Made by a program: the position numbers and the translations under genes. The notes under the pieces are model-generated. The model was not told where the DNA came from, did not search any database, and saw only the letters and a program-made list of their open reading frames with translations. A stretch of DNA of 35,917 nucleotides from a virus. Where the stretch lies: the IMG/VR virus record IMGVR_UViG_2651869533_000014, positions 1 through 35,917 of that record; one strand, written 5' to 3'. Positions 10,619-19,063 of the stretch are shown piece by piece; the first letter of the stretch is position 1, and each line of letters begins with the position of its first letter.

Positions 10619-10807
10619 ATGCAATGTAAATCTTGTGGCTATCCTAATTCGCATGTAGTAGACACGAAGAGGAACGAAAGAACTAATCAAATTATACGAA
10701 GGCGCGAATGTATAAAGTGTGGCGTTCGCTACAATACTCAAGAACAAGTAAAAGAAGCAGAGCCTAATTTTAAGACATCTCCTCCAAGGAGCATCTTAGA
10801 GAAATGA
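10619..10807 (+). CDS. stand-alone NrdR-type zinc-ribbon protein, 62 aa (no ATP-cone)
   Basis: MQCKSCGYPNSHVVDTKRNERTNQIIRRRECIKCGVRYNTQEQV follows the NrdR N-terminal pattern M.C..C.....V.D(S/T)(R/K)......IRRRR.C..C..R(F/Y).T.E. Confidence 0.6.
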   Translation: MQCKSCGYPNSHVVDTKRNERTNQIIRRRECIKCGVRYNTQEQVKEAEPNFKTSPPRSILEK

Positions 10808-12360
10808 GAACAGCATCTGAGATAGCTAGAAAGATTAAAGAAATAGAATACGCAAGACAAAAGGGAGTCGAGCGTCAGGTAACGATTAATGAACCAGGGA
10901 TGATTATACATGCTAAAGACCAAGATAAAATCTATATTCCAACTCAGACTGGTAATATTGCTCATCTCGATGACAGCTTTGTGCGCGTCATTATGGGCCC
11001 TTATGGCAGTGGTAAATCTACCTGGGCAGTTACAGAAATCGTTAGACGTGCTTGCGCTGTGCCAGTGTGGCATTCAGGAAGAAGACGAAGCCGATGGGGA
11101 ATTGTTAGAAATACCTCAGGTGAGCTCTCAACAACAACTTTAGCAACCTGGCTGGCATGGTTTGAAGACCTAGGCGATGTTAGAAAGCGCCAAAAGCCAA
11201 TAATGACCTATGAGCATACATTTAACGATGGCAAAGGCGTGGTCGAGTTAGAGTTACTATTTATAGCCCTAGACAGACCAGAGGATGTCAGAAAGATTAA
11301 GTCCCTGGAACTTACGGGCTGCTATATCAATGAGCTATCAGAAGTTCCTAAGGCGGCTCTTGCTCACATGAAGGGTCGCGTTAATCGCTATCCATCTAAA
11401 GCATTTTGCCAAGAGCCATATTGGTCAGGCATTATCGCAGATACCAACCCACCTGAAGATGACCACTGGATATATAAGGATTTTGAAGAGCAGCAGTTCG
11501 CGCATCATAAGCTATTTAAACAGCCGCCTGGACTTATAAAAGATGCTAATAATAAATGGGTACGTAACGTTAATGCTGATAACGCTAGTCACTTGCCTGG
11601 CAATTATTACGAAATGTTGGCAGAAGGACAGTCTCAAGAATTTATTAAGGTATTTTGTCTTGGTGAGTATGGTTCTGTTGGCTTTGGTAAGCGAGTTTAT
11701 CCTGAATTTAATCCTGATGTTCACGCAGTGGACTCAATATCTGCTATCCAGGGTCTCGAACTACGCATTAGTTGGGATTTTGGTCTTACTCCTGCTTGCG
11801 TGGTTAAGCAATTGTCTCCTCGTGGACAGCTTTTAATCCTTAAAGAATATGTTGCTGATGGAATGGGTATTAGAAGTTTTGCTGAATCTATAGTGTTGCC
11901 ATCCATTATGAAAGACTTTCCTTATTGCAAGATTGGAACATCAGTCGGTGACCCTGCGGGCAATAGTCGAAGTGAAATAATAGAAGAGATGTCATGTATT
12001 GGTGAGCTTAACTCTTTAGGCATTCCAACAATAGGCGCTAGAACTAATGATTTAGATCCACGTATTGGCTCCGTTAAATACTTCTTAAATAAGATGGTTG
12101 ATGGAAAGCCCGGGCTTTTGCTCGATAGAAAGAATTGCCCGGTATTATTTAAAGGCTTTGTTAAAGATTATGTATATGCACGAGTGGCAGTTTCAGGCGA
12201 GGAAAGATACAAGGACAAGCCTAATAAGAATATGTCATCACACCCAATGGATGCCCTAGGTTATGACTGCCTTGAGATAGCTAGTGATAGTATTACGCAA
12301 TATAAGATGGAAGATAAGAAAGTTGTAGATATGTTTAATCCCGTAATGAGAATATTTTAG
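10804..12360 (+). CDS. terL: terminase large subunit
   Basis: 518 aa with Walker A (MGPYGSGKST) and a Walker-B-like LTGCYINELSE. The C-terminal nuclease-like region has conserved acidic residues. Upstream of the portal gene. Confidence 0.9.
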   Translation: MRTASEIARKIKEIEYARQKGVERQVTINEPGMIIHAKDQDKIYIPTQTGNIAHLDDSFVRVIMGPYGSGKSTWAVTEIVRRACAVPVWHSGRRRSRWGIVRNTSGELSTTTLATWLAWFEDLGDVRKRQKPIMTYEHTFNDGKGVVELELLFIALDRPEDVRKIKSLELTGCYINELSEVPKAALAHMKGRVNRYPSKAFCQEPYWSGIIADTNPPEDDHWIYKDFEEQQFAHHKLFKQPPGLIKDANNKWVRNVNADNASHLPGNYYEMLAEGQSQEFIKVFCLGEYGSVGFGKRVYPEFNPDVHAVDSISAIQGLELRISWDFGLTPACVVKQLSPRGQLLILKEYVADGMGIRSFAESIVLPSIMKDFPYCKIGTSVGDPAGNSRSEIIEEMSCIGELNSLGIPTIGARTNDLDPRIGSVKYFLNKMVDGKPGLLLDRKNCPVLFKGFVKDYVYARVAVSGEERYKDKPNKNMSSHPMDALGYDCLEIASDSITQYKMEDKKVVDMFNPVMRIF

Positions 12361-12644
12361 TGAGCGACGATATATTGCCTTATCAAGAGTTGAGTCGTTT
12401 TGACATTATGTTTGGGCTGCGTGAAGAGCCAAATTATTTTAAAAAATTATGTGAGACATTAAACAAGGAAAAGGAAATGGATGTGAAAATAACAATTTAT
12501 AACGATGAAAACCAAGAGGCTATCATTGTAACAAATGGGCCTGAAGAAGGAATGGTTAATATTAAACTTATTGATGATGTCGATATTGTTACTGTATTTA
12601 TTGATGACTTAAAACTTGCCTTGAAAAAATTAACTGCTAAATAA
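12360..12644 (+). CDS. hypothetical acidic protein, 94 aa (GTG start overlapping the terL stop)
   Basis: ORF from the track. Confidence 0.5.
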   Translation: MSDDILPYQELSRFDIMFGLREEPNYFKKLCETLNKEKEMDVKITIYNDENQEAIIVTNGPEEGMVNIKLIDDVDIVTVFIDDLKLALKKLTAK

Positions 12645-12655
12645 GGATATTGTAG

Positions 12656-12934
12656 ATGTTTAAAGTGGTTAGAGAAAATAGTCCAAATAAGATGCGAGAT
12701 ATAGACATTACATTGGCTTACCACAACACAGGAAAAACATTGGAAGAGGTTGCAGATAGATTTTTTCTTTCGCATGAAACTGTTAGGAAAATTCACAATA
12801 GACACGTAACAAATATATTAAGACAGCTTGATAAATATACAGGCATTGAAGAAATGTATGGCTATCACACAGATGAAACCAGGAAATATTTGCAACAGTA
12901 CAAGGATTTTCTAATTGACGAAGGGATTGATTGA
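12656..12934 (+). CDS. small HTH protein (sigma-70 region-4 / LuxR-like helix-turn-helix)
   Basis: GKTLEEVADRFFLSHETVRKIHNRHVTNILRQL resembles region-4 type HTHs. Confidence 0.5.
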   Translation: MFKVVRENSPNKMRDIDITLAYHNTGKTLEEVADRFFLSHETVRKIHNRHVTNILRQLDKYTGIEEMYGYHTDETRKYLQQYKDFLIDEGID

Positions 12935-12937
12935 AAC

Positions 12938-13510
12938 ATGTTTTTAAGGCCACACACCTGGGTAGATGTTCCCTATACAGTTACTGAGCGAAGACGAGTA
13001 TTAAATGTCAGAGAATCTAAACATACCGCTATGGTATGGGATAAAAAATATTACAATATTGATACTGGCAAATATGATACTGATAAACTTCATACAATTA
13101 ATAGTTGCTTATTATCTGATATGATTGATAGCGAAGATGATGGCTCCTATTATTGCTTCAATGCAATAAAACTTAATTCAGTGACAAAAGAATTTACCGA
13201 AACATTAGATGAAGCACATGCCAAGGCTTTAAAGAAAGATGAAGAAATTAGACAAAAGAAAATCTTGAAAGAATTAGAAGAGCAAGAGCAAATAGAGCTT
13301 GAGAGGCAAAGAGAAGAGCGTATAGCCTTACGATGTCTAATAGCTGAAGAAAGAAGAAAATTAGCTATAAGAGAACGCGCATTAAAGAAGAAAATAAAAG
13401 AAAAAGCCGAGCTAAGAACAGAACAAGTATCGCGCCAACCAATGATTTATATAGGAGGCCCAAACCATGGCAAGCCTTATGGTTGCATTATAACTAAACA
13501 ATGGAAATAA
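12938..13510 (+). CDS. hypothetical protein with a Lys/Glu/Arg-rich coiled coil, 190 aa
   Basis: ORF from the track. A long charged helix at about aa 95-165. Confidence 0.55.
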   Translation: MFLRPHTWVDVPYTVTERRRVLNVRESKHTAMVWDKKYYNIDTGKYDTDKLHTINSCLLSDMIDSEDDGSYYCFNAIKLNSVTKEFTETLDEAHAKALKKDEEIRQKKILKELEEQEQIELERQREERIALRCLIAEERRKLAIRERALKKKIKEKAELRTEQVSRQPMIYIGGPNHGKPYGCIITKQWK

Positions 13511-13518
13511 TAATAACA

Positions 13519-13665
13519 ATGAATGGTAATTGTATATATTGTAAAAAAACATCAAATGGATTAGTTGATAAGGCATGTGAGACTTGTAGCAAACAATTCA
13601 AGGATATTGTTGATAAAGTCTGTAAGCGTTATGCTGTACCGATAAAAAGACTTGCTGATAGATAA
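13519..13665 (+). CDS. small CxxC...CxxC protein, 48 aa
   Basis: Hand-translated: MNGNCIYCKKTSNGLVDKACETCSKQFKDIVDKVCKRYAVPIKRLADR. Confidence 0.4.
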   Translation: MNGNCIYCKKTSNGLVDKACETCSKQFKDIVDKVCKRYAVPIKRLADR

Positions 13666-13690
13666 AAATTTAATTAAATGGAGATTAATA

Positions 13691-13951: not shown

Positions 13952-13986
13952 AAGGATTTTTTGTAAACTAACAAGGAGTGTTAAAG

Positions 13987-14226
13987 ATGTTTTTTCAAGA
14001 AGCGTTGCAATTATTACAAAATGGCGAAGATTTATGTCGCGAGGCTTGGACTTTAGAAGATGGGTACGTAAAGCTAATGCAAGGCATGAAGCACGTCTGG
14101 AAAGTTGTTGTTCACCCCACGCCTAATGCCGGTAATTATATATTCTCTTTAGAAGACCTTATAGCCAATGATTGGAAAAAGTTTGAAGCTCCAAAAAATG
14201 TTATAGAGCCTGCAAAAGCTGCATAG
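13987..14226 (+). CDS. DUF2829-like protein (the family that includes the anti-Thoeris sponge Tad2)
   Basis: AAGGAG 7 nt upstream of the ATG. N-terminal F.EAL..L..G....R..W and C-terminal LEDLIANDW match DUF2829 hallmarks as I recall them. Confidence 0.55.
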   Translation: MFFQEALQLLQNGEDLCREAWTLEDGYVKLMQGMKHVWKVVVHPTPNAGNYIFSLEDLIANDWKKFEAPKNVIEPAKAA

Positions 14227-14337: not shown

Positions 14338-16557
14338 ATGGGGGATAGAATGGAAATTGTGGCCGAAGGCGTGTCCATTGATGGTATTGACGAAATCAAT
14401 GAGGACTTAAGAAATAGATTAAAAGAAGCTGATATTAATGAAGAAGACATTCTTGTAAAAGCTAGACAAAATCTAGTGCTTTGGGATGGTTACTTCGGCG
14501 AAAACGTAGTTCGTGGCAAAGATGACATGAATTTCTTATTGCGTGACCAATGGTCAGCAGTAGAGCGTTCAGAGTTTAGTAGGCTCTTTAAGCCCGCAAT
14601 GACATTTAATAAGCTTTATGATGTCACTAAGAAGGTAGTAGGCGAGCAACGCAAAAACAAACCAGATTTAATAGTCCGATCGCTAACTGGGAAAGCCACT
14701 CAAAAGCAAATCGACCTTCGAGCAGATTTAGTACGTACGATTTCATATCAGTCACAAAACGATTTAGTTTATCAAACAGCATTTAAGCAAGCCTTAATGA
14801 TGGGATTTGGTGCATTTGAGATAGTTTTAGAATATGAAAATCCCAAATCTTTTAATCAAGTAATAAGATACGAAATAATTCCTGATGTAACAAGAACATC
14901 ATTTGACCCAACAGCTATGAAGCCACATAAAGGCGATGGCAATTTTTGTGCTAGACAATATCTCTATACTAAAGACGAATTCTTCGCGACTTTTCCTCAT
15001 GTAGCCAATCCAGTTTCATATTCCGACCCACGGTCTTTATTAGACTTCCAGTGGGAAACTAGAGATACAATCGTAGTTTGCAAATATACGCAAAAAGAAT
15101 GGTTTCCAGTCAAAATACTATTATTAACTAATGGCAAAACGGTTACTGAAGATGAATGGAAGGATATGCAAAAGGATATTGAAATACGTAAAAGCTTAGC
15201 TGCAAGCTCCAAAGTAGTAGGCGACATGATTAGAGAGACAATTCCAGAGGTTCATGCGGAAAGAATGTCAAAAGATTATACAATTAATCAATATATGCTC
15301 ACTCAAAATCAAATAATCAATTTCACAGAGTGGCCCTCAAAATGTTTGCCCTTAATATTCGTAGATGGGGACTCAAACTATATAAATAATCAGCAATATA
15401 CCCGCTCATTTATTCATGAGGCTAAAGACTCACAAAAATTCGTTAACTACGTAGGCTCAGAAATAACAGCCGAGATTAAAAATAGACGGCGTGAGCAGTG
15501 GCTTGGAACGCCCGATAACATTCTTGGTAATGAACAAATGTGGCGAACGCCAGAACTTCAGTCTGGAATATTAGTTGCAAAACCAGATCCAAAAACTGGT
15601 CAAATGCCGCAGAAAATGCCTCCCTGGGAGCTATCTCAAACACTCTTGCAACAATTTCAGCGCGGCTCTCAAGACATGCGCGAAATCATGGGTTTTTCAG
15701 AAGCAGAGGAGCTTCAGGGTCGTGATATTTCAGGAAAAGCACGAAGAGAGAGAAAGCTAGAAGGTTCAATGTCAGCTTATGTATGGTTTGATAACTTAAA
15801 TCAATCCATTGAGCAAGGCGGACGTGTGGTTTTAGATTTATTGCCTGTTATTGCGGGCGAATATGAACGGCCAATGGTTATAACTAAAGCCGATGGACGT
15901 ACTGACTCTGTTGTACTTAATAAGTACATGGGTGAGGATTCTGAAGGTCAATCAATATTAGAAAACTCACTTGATGATGGAAATTATGATATTGAAATTG
16001 ATACTGGTCCGTCATTTGCAGTACAAAAAGATATGGCTTTAGAGTTCTTCCAGCAGACTTTACAAGCCTTCCCTCAATCATTCCCGCTTATTGCTGATTT
16101 ATGGGCTAAGAACTTAGACGTACAGTTTATGCCACAAATTGCTGAGCGCTTTAAAACCATGGTTCCACCTGAAGTTCTTGCCAAAGAAGAAGGAAAAGAC
16201 CCGCCTCCTAAGCAGCCAAACCCTCAAGAAATGATGATGCAGCAACAAATGCAAGTGCAGCAACAGCAAATGGCCATGAATGAGCAAAAGATGCATTTAG
16301 AAGAGCAAGCTCTTATGGAAAGAGCTGAAGAGCTCAAGATTCGCAAAGAAAAGCATTTACTTGACCAAGCAGAGATGATTCTTAAGGCACAGGAAATGCA
16401 ATCTAAGATGGGTCTTGAGCAGCAAAAGATAAAAGTTGAGCACGGGAAACTGTTGTTAGATGCGGATAGAACCGAGAAAGATTTCTCATCAAAGATTTCA
16501 CAAGTTCTTGCAGATTTGCATAAACATCAGAATCCGAGCAAAAAAGAAACAAAATAA
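14338..16557 (+). CDS. portal protein (P22-like size, Gln-rich C-terminal helical region)
   Basis: 739 aa, placed between terL and scaffold/coat. The C-terminal MMMQQQMQVQQQQMAMNEQKM coiled-coil-like tail is reminiscent of the P22 portal barrel. The ATG at 14350 is an alternative start. Confidence 0.8.
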   Translation: MGDRMEIVAEGVSIDGIDEINEDLRNRLKEADINEEDILVKARQNLVLWDGYFGENVVRGKDDMNFLLRDQWSAVERSEFSRLFKPAMTFNKLYDVTKKVVGEQRKNKPDLIVRSLTGKATQKQIDLRADLVRTISYQSQNDLVYQTAFKQALMMGFGAFEIVLEYENPKSFNQVIRYEIIPDVTRTSFDPTAMKPHKGDGNFCARQYLYTKDEFFATFPHVANPVSYSDPRSLLDFQWETRDTIVVCKYTQKEWFPVKILLLTNGKTVTEDEWKDMQKDIEIRKSLAASSKVVGDMIRETIPEVHAERMSKDYTINQYMLTQNQIINFTEWPSKCLPLIFVDGDSNYINNQQYTRSFIHEAKDSQKFVNYVGSEITAEIKNRRREQWLGTPDNILGNEQMWRTPELQSGILVAKPDPKTGQMPQKMPPWELSQTLLQQFQRGSQDMREIMGFSEAEELQGRDISGKARRERKLEGSMSAYVWFDNLNQSIEQGGRVVLDLLPVIAGEYERPMVITKADGRTDSVVLNKYMGEDSEGQSILENSLDDGNYDIEIDTGPSFAVQKDMALEFFQQTLQAFPQSFPLIADLWAKNLDVQFMPQIAERFKTMVPPEVLAKEEGKDPPPKQPNPQEMMMQQQMQVQQQQMAMNEQKMHLEEQALMERAEELKIRKEKHLLDQAEMILKAQEMQSKMGLEQQKIKVEHGKLLLDADRTEKDFSSKISQVLADLHKHQNPSKKETK

Positions 16558-16693: not shown

Positions 16694-17524
16694 ATGGACG
16701 ATGATAAGAATGCTTTTGCCGAGCAAGTAAATGGCATGGATGAAGATGGGGATAATCAGAGTGCAGTTGACCCAGGTTATTCTGATGAGCAGGAAGCTCA
16801 AGCAACGGAAAGAGATAGAGATCCTCAGGAAGAGGGATATACAGATGCGGTTCGCAAACGTATACATGCTCAAGCTAAAAAGCATCAGCGCGAAATGCGA
16901 CAAATGCAGGAACAAATCTTGCATTTACAAGCACAAAGCCCTCATGCAGAAAGCGCTAATCCAGCCCTTCATCCAGCCTCCAATCCTTATAACTCACCAG
17001 GGCAGCCAAATCCGCCCGCAATGAGCGAAGAGGAAAGGATACAGAAAGCTGTGCGTTATGCTCTCGGAGCGAAGGAACACGAAGAGAAGCAAGCGCGAGT
17101 TGCTGAGCATCAGGCTCATATACATAAGAAGTACCAACGACTTAATGATGAGTTTGATAAGGCAGCTGAGAAATACGATGATTTTGATGAAGTGGTAAGA
17201 GAAGGCGATGCGCCTTTCTCAGAACACGTCAGAGATGCATTATTACTCGTAAAAAATCCAGCAGAAGTTGCTTATAAGCTAGGTAAAAATCGTTCTGAAC
17301 TCGAAAGAATTTCAAGACTCCATCCCTTAGATCAGGCACATGAAGTAATCGATTTGTCGCATGCTCTTAGGACTGGGAACGATAATAAAACGAACTCAAG
17401 TCATAGTAAATCTAATCCAATAGGATCAGTTAGAGCAAACCCAAATAGTTCTTCAAGTGCCATTACGGATAAGACTCCGCCTTCAGAAATTAGAAGGCGG
17501 ATGAAGGCTGGCACATGGAAGTGA
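16694..17524 (+). CDS. scaffolding protein (by position and composition)
   Basis: 276 aa, highly charged and helical, lying between the portal and coat genes as in P22. Confidence 0.55.
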   Translation: MDDDKNAFAEQVNGMDEDGDNQSAVDPGYSDEQEAQATERDRDPQEEGYTDAVRKRIHAQAKKHQREMRQMQEQILHLQAQSPHAESANPALHPASNPYNSPGQPNPPAMSEEERIQKAVRYALGAKEHEEKQARVAEHQAHIHKKYQRLNDEFDKAAEKYDDFDEVVREGDAPFSEHVRDALLLVKNPAEVAYKLGKNRSELERISRLHPLDQAHEVIDLSHALRTGNDNKTNSSHSKSNPIGSVRANPNSSSSAITDKTPPSEIRRRMKAGTWK

Positions 17525-17605
17525 TTGATGGGTTTTAAGGATAAAACTCAAGGACTCTGAAACACTGCCAGGTGCCATTAAAAGGATTTAATGGAGACCT
17601 AGCAA

Positions 17606-17693
17606 ATGGCTAACCAATTTATTACGACCGACCTAGTATCTAATACTGCGTTGGCGATGTTTGCAAATAACGCACCTTTTGTAATGACTGCCT
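17606..17693 (+). CDS. coat (major capsid) protein, exon 1
   Basis: GGAG 9 nt upstream of the ATG. MANQFITTDLVSNTALAMFANNAPFVMTA resembles the N-termini of P22/Sf6-type coat proteins. The unspliced frame ends at TAG 17714..17716. The exact 3' end of the exon is inferred. Confidence 0.55.
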
Positions 17694-17939
17694 TAAATGC
17701 TGGGGCCTCTTTATAGAAATATAAATGAGATAATTGGGTGAACTCAGGGAACATCTCTAGTAGACAATCCTGATCTAAGCCTCGAAAGAGGAAAGAGCAA
17801 CGACCATCCCGAAAGGGAGTAGACTCAAGTGAGTCGAAGCGCCCAACAACCGAAAGGTTGAAGATATGGTCTGATCTAGTAAGCGATTACTAGCTGCTGA
17901 AAGGCGGGTTAAGATGACGGTCTTAATCGAACACAAATG
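17694..17939 (+). ncRNA. candidate group I self-splicing intron in the coat gene (boundaries inferred)
   Basis: Splits a conserved ORF. Hairpins: 17780-91 (GAAA loop), 17807-18 (GAAA), 17822-35, 17847-60 (GAAA), 17876-93, 17894-907 (GAAA) and 17908-27. UCUAAG (17774-79) with UAUGG (17865-69) forms a tetraloop-receptor-like internal loop. A P1-like hairpin pairs exon GCCU (17690-93) with GGGC (17703-06), giving a U.G wobble at 17693. The insert ends in G17939. Confidence 0.5.
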
Positions 17940-19063
17940 CAAGAATTTACCAAGATGATTTTGTATCTTCTGGATATAAAATCGGTGATACATTACAAGT
18001 TAGACGCCAAAACCACTTTATTGTTGGTGATGGCTCAGTCGCAACGCCTCAATCTATCATTGAAACAGTGGAAACAATTGTTATCGCGCATCAGTATCAC
18101 GCGTTGATTGCATATACCATTCAAGATTTATCTTTAAGAATTGAAGACTTCTCACGTTTGTTTATTGCTCCTGCTATACAGGAAGTAATTACTCAGATGG
18201 AAAAAGACATCGCTTCTGCAGCTGAACAAGAATTAAATTTCTTTACAGGTACAGCAGGCGTTGCAATTAACTCTTTCACTACTGTTGATACGGCTGGTGC
18301 GAAGTTACTTGAACAAGGTGTTAATATTGCTTCTGATGCTTATATAGCAATGACTGTTCGTGATGGCTCTTCTTTGAAAGGCGCTTTGCTTAATAACTTT
18401 ACGCCTGTCTTTAACGAAGATATCGTTAGAAGTTCTGCTATCGGGCATTTATCCTATTTTGATATTTTTCAATCTCAGAATATTAAGCGTCATATTGCAG
18501 GCGCAGGTCCAACCTTGCATTCTTCAGATCCATTATTGGTAAATGGTGCTGTGTCTTCTGGCAATACTATTATCATGGATGGCGCCACAATCAGCGTTAC
18601 TAACTACTTTGTAGTAGGCGATGTTATATCAATTGCTGGCGTTCAATCTGTTAACCCTGTGGGTCGTGCTTCAACTGGACAAGATATGCAGTTTGTTGTT
18701 ACTGCTAATGCTAGTTCTGATGGTAGCGGCAATCTAACAGTGCTAGTAAGTCCTGTCATAATTTCAGATACGCTTAATCCTAATCGTAACGTATCTAATG
18801 CCATTCCAGATAATGCGGCAGTTACAATGGTTGGCTCACATAACGTAAACGTTGCTTACCCAAGTCGCGGTTTAGATATTGTTTGCCCTCCTCTTTATAA
18901 GCTTCAAGTACCTTATGCATCTGTTGCTGTAGACCCTGAAACTGGTTTATCTCTTGCTGTTACTCAAACAGGCGATATTTTAGGCTATCAAAACTATATG
19001 CGTATCGACTTACTTTGCGGCTTTAACTGGCACCAACAGTATGCGGTTAGAGTTCTTTCCTAA
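17940..19063 (+). CDS. coat (major capsid) protein, exon 2, P22/Sf6 coat family
   Basis: The frame is open from 17927 with no ATG, GTG or TTG before 18068. ..RIYQDDFVSSGYKIGDTLQVRRQNHF.. aligns with Sf6 gp5 (..DRQLLAGEINSSTGDSVSFKRPHQF..). C-terminal MRIDLL also resembles Sf6 MRFDLL. Confidence 0.8.

Follow-up and report, generated by a model that had tools for sequence, protein, structure and literature searches.

A coat gene in two pieces

How does a phage make its major capsid protein when the reading frame for it closes after 36 codons and opens again downstream with no start codon close by? The question is raised by the coat gene of an uncultured phage with a genome of about 36 kb, contained in the window analysed here (a stretch of 35,917 nucleotides, whose ends overlap by 101 nt, typical of a circularly assembled complete genome). 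The gene is a major capsid gene of the P22 type (PF11651) and lies in an intact head module together with the terminase, the P22-type portal and the scaffolding protein. Most probably (we put the probability at roughly 0.93) it is interrupted by a group I intron lacking an open reading frame, with an architecture of subgroup IA (P1-P9 plus P7.1, P7.2, P9.1 and P9.2). The split frame had been described in the first-pass annotation of this DNA, and all of its coordinates are correct: the ATG at 17606 preceded by GGAG, the TAG at 17714, and the coat frame open again 3' of the TAA at 17924-26, where the earliest ATG, GTG or TTG is the GTG at 18068.

17593..17596, plus strand: Shine-Dalgarno sequence GGAG of the coat gene, read from the sequence, 9 nt 5' of ATG 17606
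17606..17693, plus strand: coat exon 1, 29 codons and base 1 of codon 30, last base U17693
17694..17939, plus strand: group I intron, 246 nt, without ORF, subgroup-IA architecture (RF00028, uninterrupted alleles, covariation)
17714..17716, plus strand: in-frame TAG, 21 nt into the intron and 5' of the catalytic core, closing the 36-aa ORF from ATG 17606
17940..19063, plus strand: coat exon 2, from bases 2-3 of codon 30 to the stop codon

Joining U17693 to C17940, that is, removing an insert placed after base 1 of codon 30, restores the frame and yields a protein of 403 aa. This spliced product matches PF11651 (P22_CoatProtein; E 4.1e-27, 95.4 bits against a cut-off of 24) with its residues 1-394 on profile positions 1-412 of 423, and in tblastn its residues 1-401 align unbroken to annotated P22-type coat or major capsid genes at 26-30% identity. 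Aligned over its whole length (100%), it shares 89-97% identity with at least 120 homologues, nearly all of them 403 aa long; residues 1-29 of the uninterrupted ones align colinearly with exon 1. The P22-type coat of 403 aa that had been postulated from the letters is thus borne out by the profile match and by colinear homologues of the same size. For the 331-aa ORF, a fragment of the coat, a look-up of the exact product returned no record.

The insert is a group I intron

The proposal that the insert is a group I intron was checked with the covariance model of this RNA family. RF00028 (Rfam) matches positions 17684-17893 with 73.4 bits (gathering score 50; E 5.5e-17); the match is full-length, covering model positions 1-253 of 253, and is the only Rfam match in the window. 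The insert also folds more stably than expected (z-score -2.83), only one of 200 shuffled sequences being as stable. The following elements can be assigned:

17690..17706, plus strand: P1 hairpin, 17690-95 (exon GCCU and intron UA) with the guide sequence UGGGGC at 17701-06 (Rfam alignment, minimum-energy fold)
17707..17729, plus strand: P2 hairpin, 17707-15 with 17720-29, a fifth GAAA loop
17734..17740, plus strand: P3 5' strand UUGGGUG, partner 17840-17846
17744..17773, plus strand: P4-P5 domain, P4 17744-49 with 17768-73 and P5 17754-56 with 17762-64
17774..17796, plus strand: P6/P6a with GAAA loop (fold and covariation)
17802..17806, plus strand: P7 5' strand GACCA, partner 17867-17871, pseudoknot with P3
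17807..17818, plus strand: P7.1 hairpin with GAAA loop, subgroup-IA peripheral stem, compensatory changes at 3 of 4 pairs
17822..17835, plus strand: P7.2 hairpin, subgroup-IA peripheral stem, compensatory changes at 5 of 5 pairs
17840..17846, plus strand: P3 3' strand CGCCCAA (covariation)
17847..17860, plus strand: P8 hairpin with GAAA loop, compensatory changes at 4 of 5 pairs
17861..17871, plus strand: J8/7 (AAGAUA) and P7 3' strand (UGGUC), conserved core element GAUAUGGUC, Rfam consensus AAGAUAUAGUC
17876..17893, plus strand: P9 hairpin, end of the Rfam model, 7 bp, 100% paired, 6 pairs with compensatory changes
17894..17927, plus strand: 3' peripheral hairpins P9.1 (17894-907, GAAA loop) and P9.2 (17908-27)
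17928..17939, plus strand: 3' tail CGAACACAAAUG, the final base being the terminal guanosine G17939

Pairing in an alignment of 10 related introns amounts to 91.1% for the 12 helices (P3/P7 pseudoknot included) in their true register, whereas a control with the partners slid out of register reaches 33-41%. At 38 of the 62 pairs compensatory changes (both sides changed) are found among the 10 introns, and none of 500 shuffles attains the observed values; RNAalifold alone reports such changes at 31 of 43 pairs. The two helices of the pseudoknot are paired in all 10 introns: P3 (7 bp, 100% paired) has compensatory changes at 5 pairs, and P7 (5 bp, 100% paired), the helix which holds the guanosine-binding site in group I introns, contains a pair that is C:G in 4 introns and U:A in 6. 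A 28-mer common to related introns lies in the P4-P5 domain. Conservation of P9.1 (64% paired) and P9.2 (70%) is below that of the other helices, in part because the alignment is weaker there.

Most of the structural elements noticed from the letters are real parts of this RNA. These are the four GAAA-capped hairpins (CCTCGAAAGAGG at 17780-91, TCCCGAAAGGGA at 17807-18, CAACCGAAAGGTTG at 17847-60 and CTGCTGAAAGGCGG at 17894-907), the three further hairpins (GACTCAAGTGAGTC at 17822-35, CTAGTAAGCGATTACTAG at 17876-93 and GTTAAGATGACGGTCTTAAT at 17908-27), the P2-like stem, which pairs 17707-15 with 17720-29 and is capped by GAAA, and the P1-like hairpin, in which GCCU (17690-93) pairs with GGGC (17703-06) and the wobble U17693.G17703 marks the 5' splice site, as both the Rfam alignment and the minimum-energy fold have it. 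One suggestion has to be withdrawn, namely that UCUAAG and UAUGG form an 11-nt receptor for a GAAA tetraloop. These segments belong to P4/P6 and to J8/7-P7: 17772-79 runs from the end of P4 through the 5' strand of P6 into the P6 internal loop, while 17867-71 (UGGUC), which covaries with 17802-06, supplies the 3' strand of P7. Since 17772-79 and 17865-71 are not opposite strands of one helix, such a receptor is impossible.

The gap might instead be crossed in translation, either because ribosomes bypass it, as they do in T4 gene 60, or because the coat is translated as two separate fragments, and the exon-1 frame does meet a stop shortly past the junction. We give this next to no credence. Both the covariance model and the covariation mark the insert as a complete group I ribozyme, and exon 2 offers no start before GTG 18068, just upstream of which no Shine-Dalgarno sequence was seen; moreover, we know of no precedent for the bypassing of 246 nt.

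As regards the subgroup of the intron, extra stems P7.1 and P7.2 between the 5' strand of P7 and the 3' strand of P3 distinguish subgroup IA (PMC3984707), and two hairpins (17807-18 and 17822-35) stand in exactly this place between GACCA (P7) and CGCCCAA (P3'). Among the subdivisions IA1, IA2 and IA3, the architecture suggests IA2.

Splice junctions

The ends of the intron are fixed by alleles that lack it. The ligated exon DNA GCCTCAAGAATTTAC is carried exactly by one uninterrupted allele (L083), which reads GGCCTCAAGAATTTAC as do the ligated exons of the window, so that the junction 17693|17940 is unambiguous; the site without intron has the form GCCTCAAGA. The peptide across the junction, FVMTASRIYQDDF, is read by more than 100 uninterrupted homologues of 403 aa and is present in nine of nine retrieved ones. 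The 5' splice site given by P1 agrees with this junction, and G17939, immediately 5' of exon 2, is fixed as the terminal base by the L083 allele together with the protein homologues. The junction first proposed, with A-S-R at the seam and a terminal G17939, therefore matches both DNA and protein. The 3' tail GAACACAAAUG| resembles that of introns whose junctions are set by T4-like DNA polymerase, T7-type capsid and SU10-type capsid proteins, and a motif GAACAY-N2-4-UG| is common to three introns (L001, L012, L016) whose 3' junctions are fixed by the host proteins.

Two other junctions were considered and rejected. The first-pass annotation had offered a direct repeat, AAATGC at 17695-700 and 17935-40, as an alternative seam reading ..ALNARIY..; joining 17700 to 17941 would give ..TALNARIY.., which occurs in 0 of 81 tabulated relatives, and no homologue of 405 aa is among the matches listed. 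The repeat is present and unremarkable, 3.3% of random pairs of 15/16-nt segments of the window having a 6-mer in common. Placing the 3' splice site at the last base of the Rfam match, G17893, would leave exon 2 out of frame; the intron runs on through P9.1 and P9.2 to G17939.

Uninterrupted relatives and the integrity of the assembly

The same gene is uninterrupted, with a match of 1209 nt, in 80 IMG/VR loci, one MAG contig and five loci of a genome collection; the intron is absent from all of the 86 uninterrupted relatives examined, and its distribution is sporadic. No second copy in a coat gene was found in IMG/VR (28-mer scan), in JGI metagenomes (22-mer scan; the four matches are all other introns), among the five genome-collection relatives or among the annotated phage records listed as matches. 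The intron-bearing allele is therefore known from a single assembly. One JGI contig with an identical portal gene stops about 0.6 kb short of the intron, on its upstream side. In a test for co-conversion, no local switch of the nearest neighbour appeared near the insertion site, the nearest uninterrupted coat genes having about 81% DNA identity. A search of the literature, of which our coverage is incomplete, returned no report of an intron in a P22-type coat gene. The MAG bins point to contradictory hosts (Sulfuricurvum, Planctomycetota, Gammaproteobacteria, Bacillota and 'Buchnera').

An allele seen once raises the suspicion that the assembler joined the intron of another phage of the same sample into the coat gene. 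Scans of IMG/VR and JGI recovered this allele with its intron on no further contig, other environmental phages do contain related introns, and JGI sample 3300002092 also contains an uninterrupted relative (L059). The insert is, however, bounded to the nucleotide, and its excision restores both the frame and the uninterrupted allele with nothing duplicated or lost. Its guide GGGC pairs with the local exon sequence GCCU and places the U.G wobble exactly on the junction. With identities of only about 80% in its closest relatives, no donor sequence is on record. A chimeric join is not expected to produce exact bounds, a fitting guide or the absence of a donor, and we regard an artefact as extremely improbable.

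Probable splicing

The conservation of the RNA suggests that the intron is spliced in this phage, presumably by the steps established for group I introns. The late transcript would fold into the ribozyme, and an external guanosine bound in P7 would attack after U17693, the U of the P1 U.G wobble. The free 3' hydroxyl of exon 1 would then attack after the terminal G17939, joining GCC-U to CA-AGA in a ligated RNA ACUGCCU-CAAGAAUU, the mRNA for the 403-aa coat. On unspliced RNA, ribosomes would halt at TAG 17714, within P2 and ahead of the core, and this stop codon may shield the catalytic core from them.

The intron could also be real but catalytically dead, which would make the coat gene a pseudogene and the genome defective or non-viable. 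Neither an endonuclease nor a sibling copy was found, and P10 is weak, with 2 bp possible as read from the sequence (C17940-G17702 and A17941-U17701). Against this, each of the 12 helices is intact, as are J8/7, P7, the U.G wobble and the terminal G, and the family model is matched in full; the exons are undamaged, encoding a protein 97% identical to functional-looking homologues, and the remaining genome is intact. We consider a dead intron very improbable and an intron that splices the better account.

By gene callers, the coat gene would be reported as a 331-aa fragment or missed, and recognition of the intron recovers a major capsid protein of 403 aa. The one genome with the intron and its 86 close relatives examined without it provide a natural contrast.

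Related introns in other phage genes

The closest relatives of the intron lie in genes for SU10-type and T7-type capsid proteins, T4-like DNA polymerase, ribonucleotide reductase and RNA polymerase of other phages. One intron lineage is common to these genes of very different phages. Nearest overall are the introns in capsid genes of uncultured phages, of the SU10 type (PF17236; IMG/VR L016, L015, L006, L007, L010, L003 and L005) and of the T7 gp10A type (PF21703; IMG/VR L012), which match at about 80% identity across 207 nt, P9.1/P9.2 being part of this stretch. Like the intron studied here, they lack an ORF and are located within the first ~30 codons of a major capsid gene; they differ from it in capsid family, insertion site and guide sequence, and compensatory changes have set P2, P7.2, P8 and P9 apart. 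To our knowledge, these capsid introns are undescribed as well.

Among annotated phage genomes, the best match is an intron in a phage DNA polymerase gene (82% and 79% identity, 140-nt core), which scores 75.9 bits with RF00028. Both introns are small and ORF-less, with P3-P9, P7.1/P7.2 and the tail GAACAC..UG|, but the polymerase intron has another host gene, another guide sequence and an unrelated phage lineage, and it seems from our reading of its junction to be missing P2, which is present in the window. The core sequence also resembles that of introns in Twort-like phages of Staphylococcus (56 records, about 77% identity over ~80 nt); T4 itself is absent from the 60 records that the sequence search listed. 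The classical IA2 introns of phages, T4 td, nrdB and nrdD and those of Twort orf142 (PMC3984707), share with ours the P7.1/P7.2 stems and a position in conserved phage genes at codons that are themselves highly conserved. Those of T4 contain endonuclease ORFs and reside in nucleotide-metabolism genes, neither of which is true here.

Group I introns in major capsid genes are known from the lactococcal phage Tuc2009 and the mycobacteriophage LittleE (PMC3706429). RT-PCR, together with N-terminal sequencing through the junction, demonstrated splicing in LittleE, of which intron-less relatives exist (PMC3706429). The two resemble our case in having a group I intron in an essential, highly expressed capsid gene. 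They are, in contrast, siphoviruses that infect Gram-positive bacteria and have HK97-like capsid genes, and the LittleE intron is 819 bp long and contains an HNH endonuclease gene, whereas the present one has 246 nt and no ORF in a P22-type coat gene. As self-splicing introns in essential phage genes, those for capsids included, are well documented, the present intron adds to a known kind of phage element and leaves the concepts unchanged, while the P22-type coat family joins the phage structural genes invaded by group I introns.

Mobility and origin

The coding strand holds no ORF belonging to the intron itself. Just two ORFs overlap it on this strand, one of 36 aa that runs on from exon 1 and one of 56 aa, the latter starting 3 nt before the 3' splice site and lying almost entirely in exon 2; on the minus strand, ORFs of 51 aa and 72 aa overlap the intron and reach into the exons. 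Pfam scans of 32 ORFs of the window, 8 of which were compared with PHROGs as well, found no homing endonuclease domain, and the sole nuclease-like signal is a sub-threshold VRR-NUC at 7084-7494. An ORF of 190 aa at 12938-13510 matches no family, and solved structures only at noise level (best E 0.019, proteasome subunits); it has no DNA match in one relative (L002). As neither the intron nor the 32 scanned ORFs encode an endonuclease, the intron has probably lost its autonomous mobility in this genome. It most likely arrived either by homing with the aid of an endonuclease, which was later lost or acted in trans, or by reverse splicing at a site matching its guide.

A bolder proposal, which we consider unlikely on present data, is that the intron belongs, as one branch, to an ORF-less subgroup-IA lineage which has repeatedly entered the 5' ends of major capsid genes (P22-, SU10- and T7-type) in unrelated phages without a homing endonuclease, by reverse splicing into short sites complementary to the guide. 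If true, the lineage might also bring an advantage, for example in the timing of late genes or in marking recombination boundaries between co-infecting phages. A hint in this direction comes from the SU10-type sister introns, which occupy two sites 12 nt apart, both ending in GACAU, the complement of the guide sequence of these sister introns.

A group I intron within a P22-type coat gene

The coat gene of this phage is interrupted, as the first-pass annotation had described: a 36-codon ORF runs from ATG 17606, with GGAG (17593-96, +) on its 5' side, to TAG 17714-16, and the coat-homologous frame resumes 3' of TAA 17924-26, the earliest candidate start codon there being GTG 18068. When 17693 is joined to 17940 the result is a 403-codon ORF (1212 nt), the coat length originally proposed, and its product matches the P22 coat protein family (PF11651) over residues 1-394 (E 4.1e-27). 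A large protein collection yielded 1,397 relatives, the best 120 of which share 89-97% identity at 100% query coverage and are nearly all exactly 403 aa long. All nine homologues retrieved carry ..NAPFVMTASRIYQDDF.. (one with NSPF instead of NAPF) and otherwise show short N-terminal differences.

The insert is a group I intron. Across the whole window, Rfam at its gathering thresholds gave a single match, to the group I catalytic intron model RF00028 (17684-17893, +; 73.4 bits against a cut-off of 50, E 5.5e-17, full model length), and only 1 of 200 dinucleotide shuffles folds as well as the interval itself (z = -2.83). The hairpins noticed at first reading are all present at the positions given; the elements are as follows.

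Elements of the intron (window coordinates)
17690-95 with 17701-06 (+), P1
17707-15 with 17720-29 (+), P2
17734-40 with 17840-46 (+), P3
17744-49 with 17768-73 (+), P4
17754-64 (+), P5
17774-96 (+), P6/P6a
17802-06 with 17867-71 (+), P7
17807-18 (+), P7.1
17822-35 (+), P7.2
17847-60 (+), P8
17861-66 (+), J8/7
17876-93 (+), P9
17894-907 (+), P9.1
17908-27 (+), P9.2
17928-39 (+), 3' tail

When the intron was aligned with nine relatives from a P4-P5 28-mer scan, a structure of 12 helices, P3/P7 pseudoknot included, was 91.1% paired across the 10 introns, against 33-41% in a control with the 3' partners slid by 1-3 columns. Two-sided changes occur in 38 of 62 pairs, and none of 500 shuffles reached the observed values; RNAalifold independently recovered most of the same helices, with compensatory changes in 31 of 43 pairs. 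In P7, a C:G to U:A switch separates GACCA/UGGUC (four introns) from GACUA/UAGUC (six). Stems P7.1 and P7.2 are placed between P7 and P3', which gives the intron a subgroup-IA architecture by the criteria that PMC3984707 summarises. The 11-nt tetraloop receptor suggested earlier fails, because its two halves are not opposed within one helix: UAUGG belongs to J8/7 and P7, UCUAAG to the 5' strand of P6 and its internal loop.

Splice junction

The uninterrupted coat allele of locus L083, GGCCTCAAGAATTTAC, exactly matches the ligated exons and is no longer reproduced when the junction is moved by one base in either direction; the intron therefore comprises 17694-17939 (246 nt), as first proposed. 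It begins with UAAAUG and ends with AAAUG, G17939 being the terminal guanosine, and in the Rfam alignment the conserved P1 U.G wobble falls on U17693.G17703. By analogy with its family, guanosine would attack 3' of U17693 and exon ligation would follow at G17939.

Host proteins fix the 3' junction in three related introns.

Protein-fixed 3' junctions (bar, splice site)
Escherichia phage PSD2002, T4-like DNA polymerase: ..LYGAL|GNVWFRYYDL..
L012, T7-type capsid: ..LKTFSG|EVLAAF..
L016, SU10-type capsid: ..SVADI|ITDITPF..

All three terminate in GAACAY-N2-4-UG|, as does the window's GAACACAAAUG|. A 3' end at P9 (17893), where the Rfam model stops, is out of frame. The other junction initially considered, at an AAATGC repeat, would give ..TALNARIY.., which occurs in none of the 81 tabulated relatives; the repeat itself is nothing unusual, a shared 6-mer turning up in 3.3% of random segment pairs.

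The GCC-U|CA-AGA codons at the 17693/17940 junction are rare among relatives (exact combination in 1/81) and maximise P1 and both possible P10 pairs. Co-conversion of the flanks and selection for splicing would both fit this choice, and the nearest uninterrupted coat genes (~81% DNA identity) are too diverged to separate the two.

Distribution and related introns

The coat gene is uninterrupted, as a single 1209-nt match, in 80 IMG/VR loci, one MAG contig and five genome-collection loci; with the intron absent from all 86, its distribution is sporadic. PFVMT[A/G]SRIYQDD is kept in all 81 tabulated loci, Ala/Gly being the sole amino-acid change, and its synonymous positions vary freely, the usual setting of a phage intron. 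No second copy of the intron in a coat gene was found in IMG/VR (28-mer scan), among annotated phage records or in JGI metagenomes, where an intron-specific 22-mer gave four matches, all to other introns. One JGI contig (sample 3300002092) carries a portal gene identical to the window's and stops on the upstream side of the coat gene; an uninterrupted relative, L059, comes from the same sample.

The exact P4-P5 28-mer occurs in 14 IMG/VR stretches, 13 of which match RF00028 at 68-89 bits (L004 lies below the gathering score). The closest relatives are ORF-less introns (~80% identity over 207 nt) inserted in the first ~20 codons of capsid genes of SU10 type (PF17236); next comes one in a T7 gp10A-type capsid gene (PF21703), near codon 29. 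Among annotated phages the best match (82% over 140 nt) is a 219-nt unannotated gap in PSD2002 (OK335775, 166610-166827) between two 'DNA polymerase' CDSs; it scores 75.9 bits with RF00028 and is a group I intron, the equivalent element of vB_EcoM_G2285 being annotated Intron_gpI. We read the PSD2002 junction from the protein as ..LYGAL|GNVWF.., which would place the true P1 downstream of its position in the Rfam alignment. More distant core matches extend to 149 phage records, including Staphylococcus Twort-like phages, Aeromonas T4-like split polymerases and crAss-like phages; among those inspected, the host genes encode ribonucleotide reductase, helicase and polymerase.

Some environmental contigs carry two introns of this lineage, with 0.6-2.1 kb between matches.

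Paired introns
L098: 3150-3370 and 4013-4239
L100: 955-1175 and 1818-2044
L008: 3236-3463 and 5603-5815, large and small ribonucleotide reductase genes

Capsid-gene group I introns are already documented, for example in Tuc2009 and mycobacteriophage LittleE, the latter demonstrated by RT-PCR and protein sequencing across the junction (PMC3706429). We found no report of one in a P22-type coat gene in the literature searched, the coverage of which was incomplete. The intron is real and the main interpretation of the first-pass annotation right; it is ordinary in kind, a well-known class within a new host-gene family.

Mobility and translation

On the coding strand, the intron (17694-17939) carries no ORF of its own; only two ORFs overlap it there, the 36-aa run-on of exon 1 and one of 56 aa that opens 3 nt short of the 3' splice site and lies nearly all within exon 2. 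The overlapping ORFs on the minus strand measure 51 and 72 aa. The in-frame TAG 17714 would free ribosomes ahead of the catalytic core, which we infer may aid folding. No endonuclease domain was detected in the 32 window ORFs examined; HNH endonuclease genes lie beside or inside some related introns, that of L013 in a T7-like RNA polymerase gene being one example. PMC3984707 reviews phage introns that lack an ORF, as well as homing aided by a free-standing endonuclease. The sister introns of homologous SU10-type capsid genes occupy two sites 12 nt apart, ..SVADI|ITDI.. (L016, 2816-3063) and ..DIITDI|.. (L003, ~5043 onward), both ending in GACAU, complementary to the introns' guide sequence, a hint that they may have changed site by reverse splicing.

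Genome context

An identical 101-nt direct repeat at the window ends (1-101 = 35817-35917) indicates that the genome, of about 35,816 bp, is complete and was assembled as a circle. The head genes form an intact module, in which the split coat gene comes after the three listed.

Head genes upstream of the coat gene
10804-12360, terminase
14338-16557, P22-type portal
16694-17524, scaffolding protein

Between terminase and portal, 12368-13671 is without DNA similarity to the relative L002 and looks like a variable cargo region; it contains a 94-aa ORF, a 92-aa HTH protein (sigma-70 region 4-like) and a 190-aa ORF for which no family was detected. An 82-aa ORF that also lies between terminase and portal (13978-14226, +) matches the Tad2-like Thoeris anti-defence domain (PF11195, E 3.6e-7), and a counterpart gene is called in L002. 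In the structural/tail region, a 459-aa ORF (24390-25769, +) gives a sub-threshold match to the polyvalent-protein ADP-ribosyltransferase domain PF18760 (25 bits against 31.2). A 223-aa ORF (33570-34241, +) matches the U-box (PF04564, E 5.1e-11, 43 bits against 21.4), a ubiquitin-ligase-type domain which is, to our knowledge, rare in phage genomes. The near-complete genome-collection relatives L105-L109 sit in MAG bins of unrelated phyla (Sulfuricurvum, Planctomycetota, Gammaproteobacteria, Bacillota and 'Buchnera'), and their binning is probably wrong.
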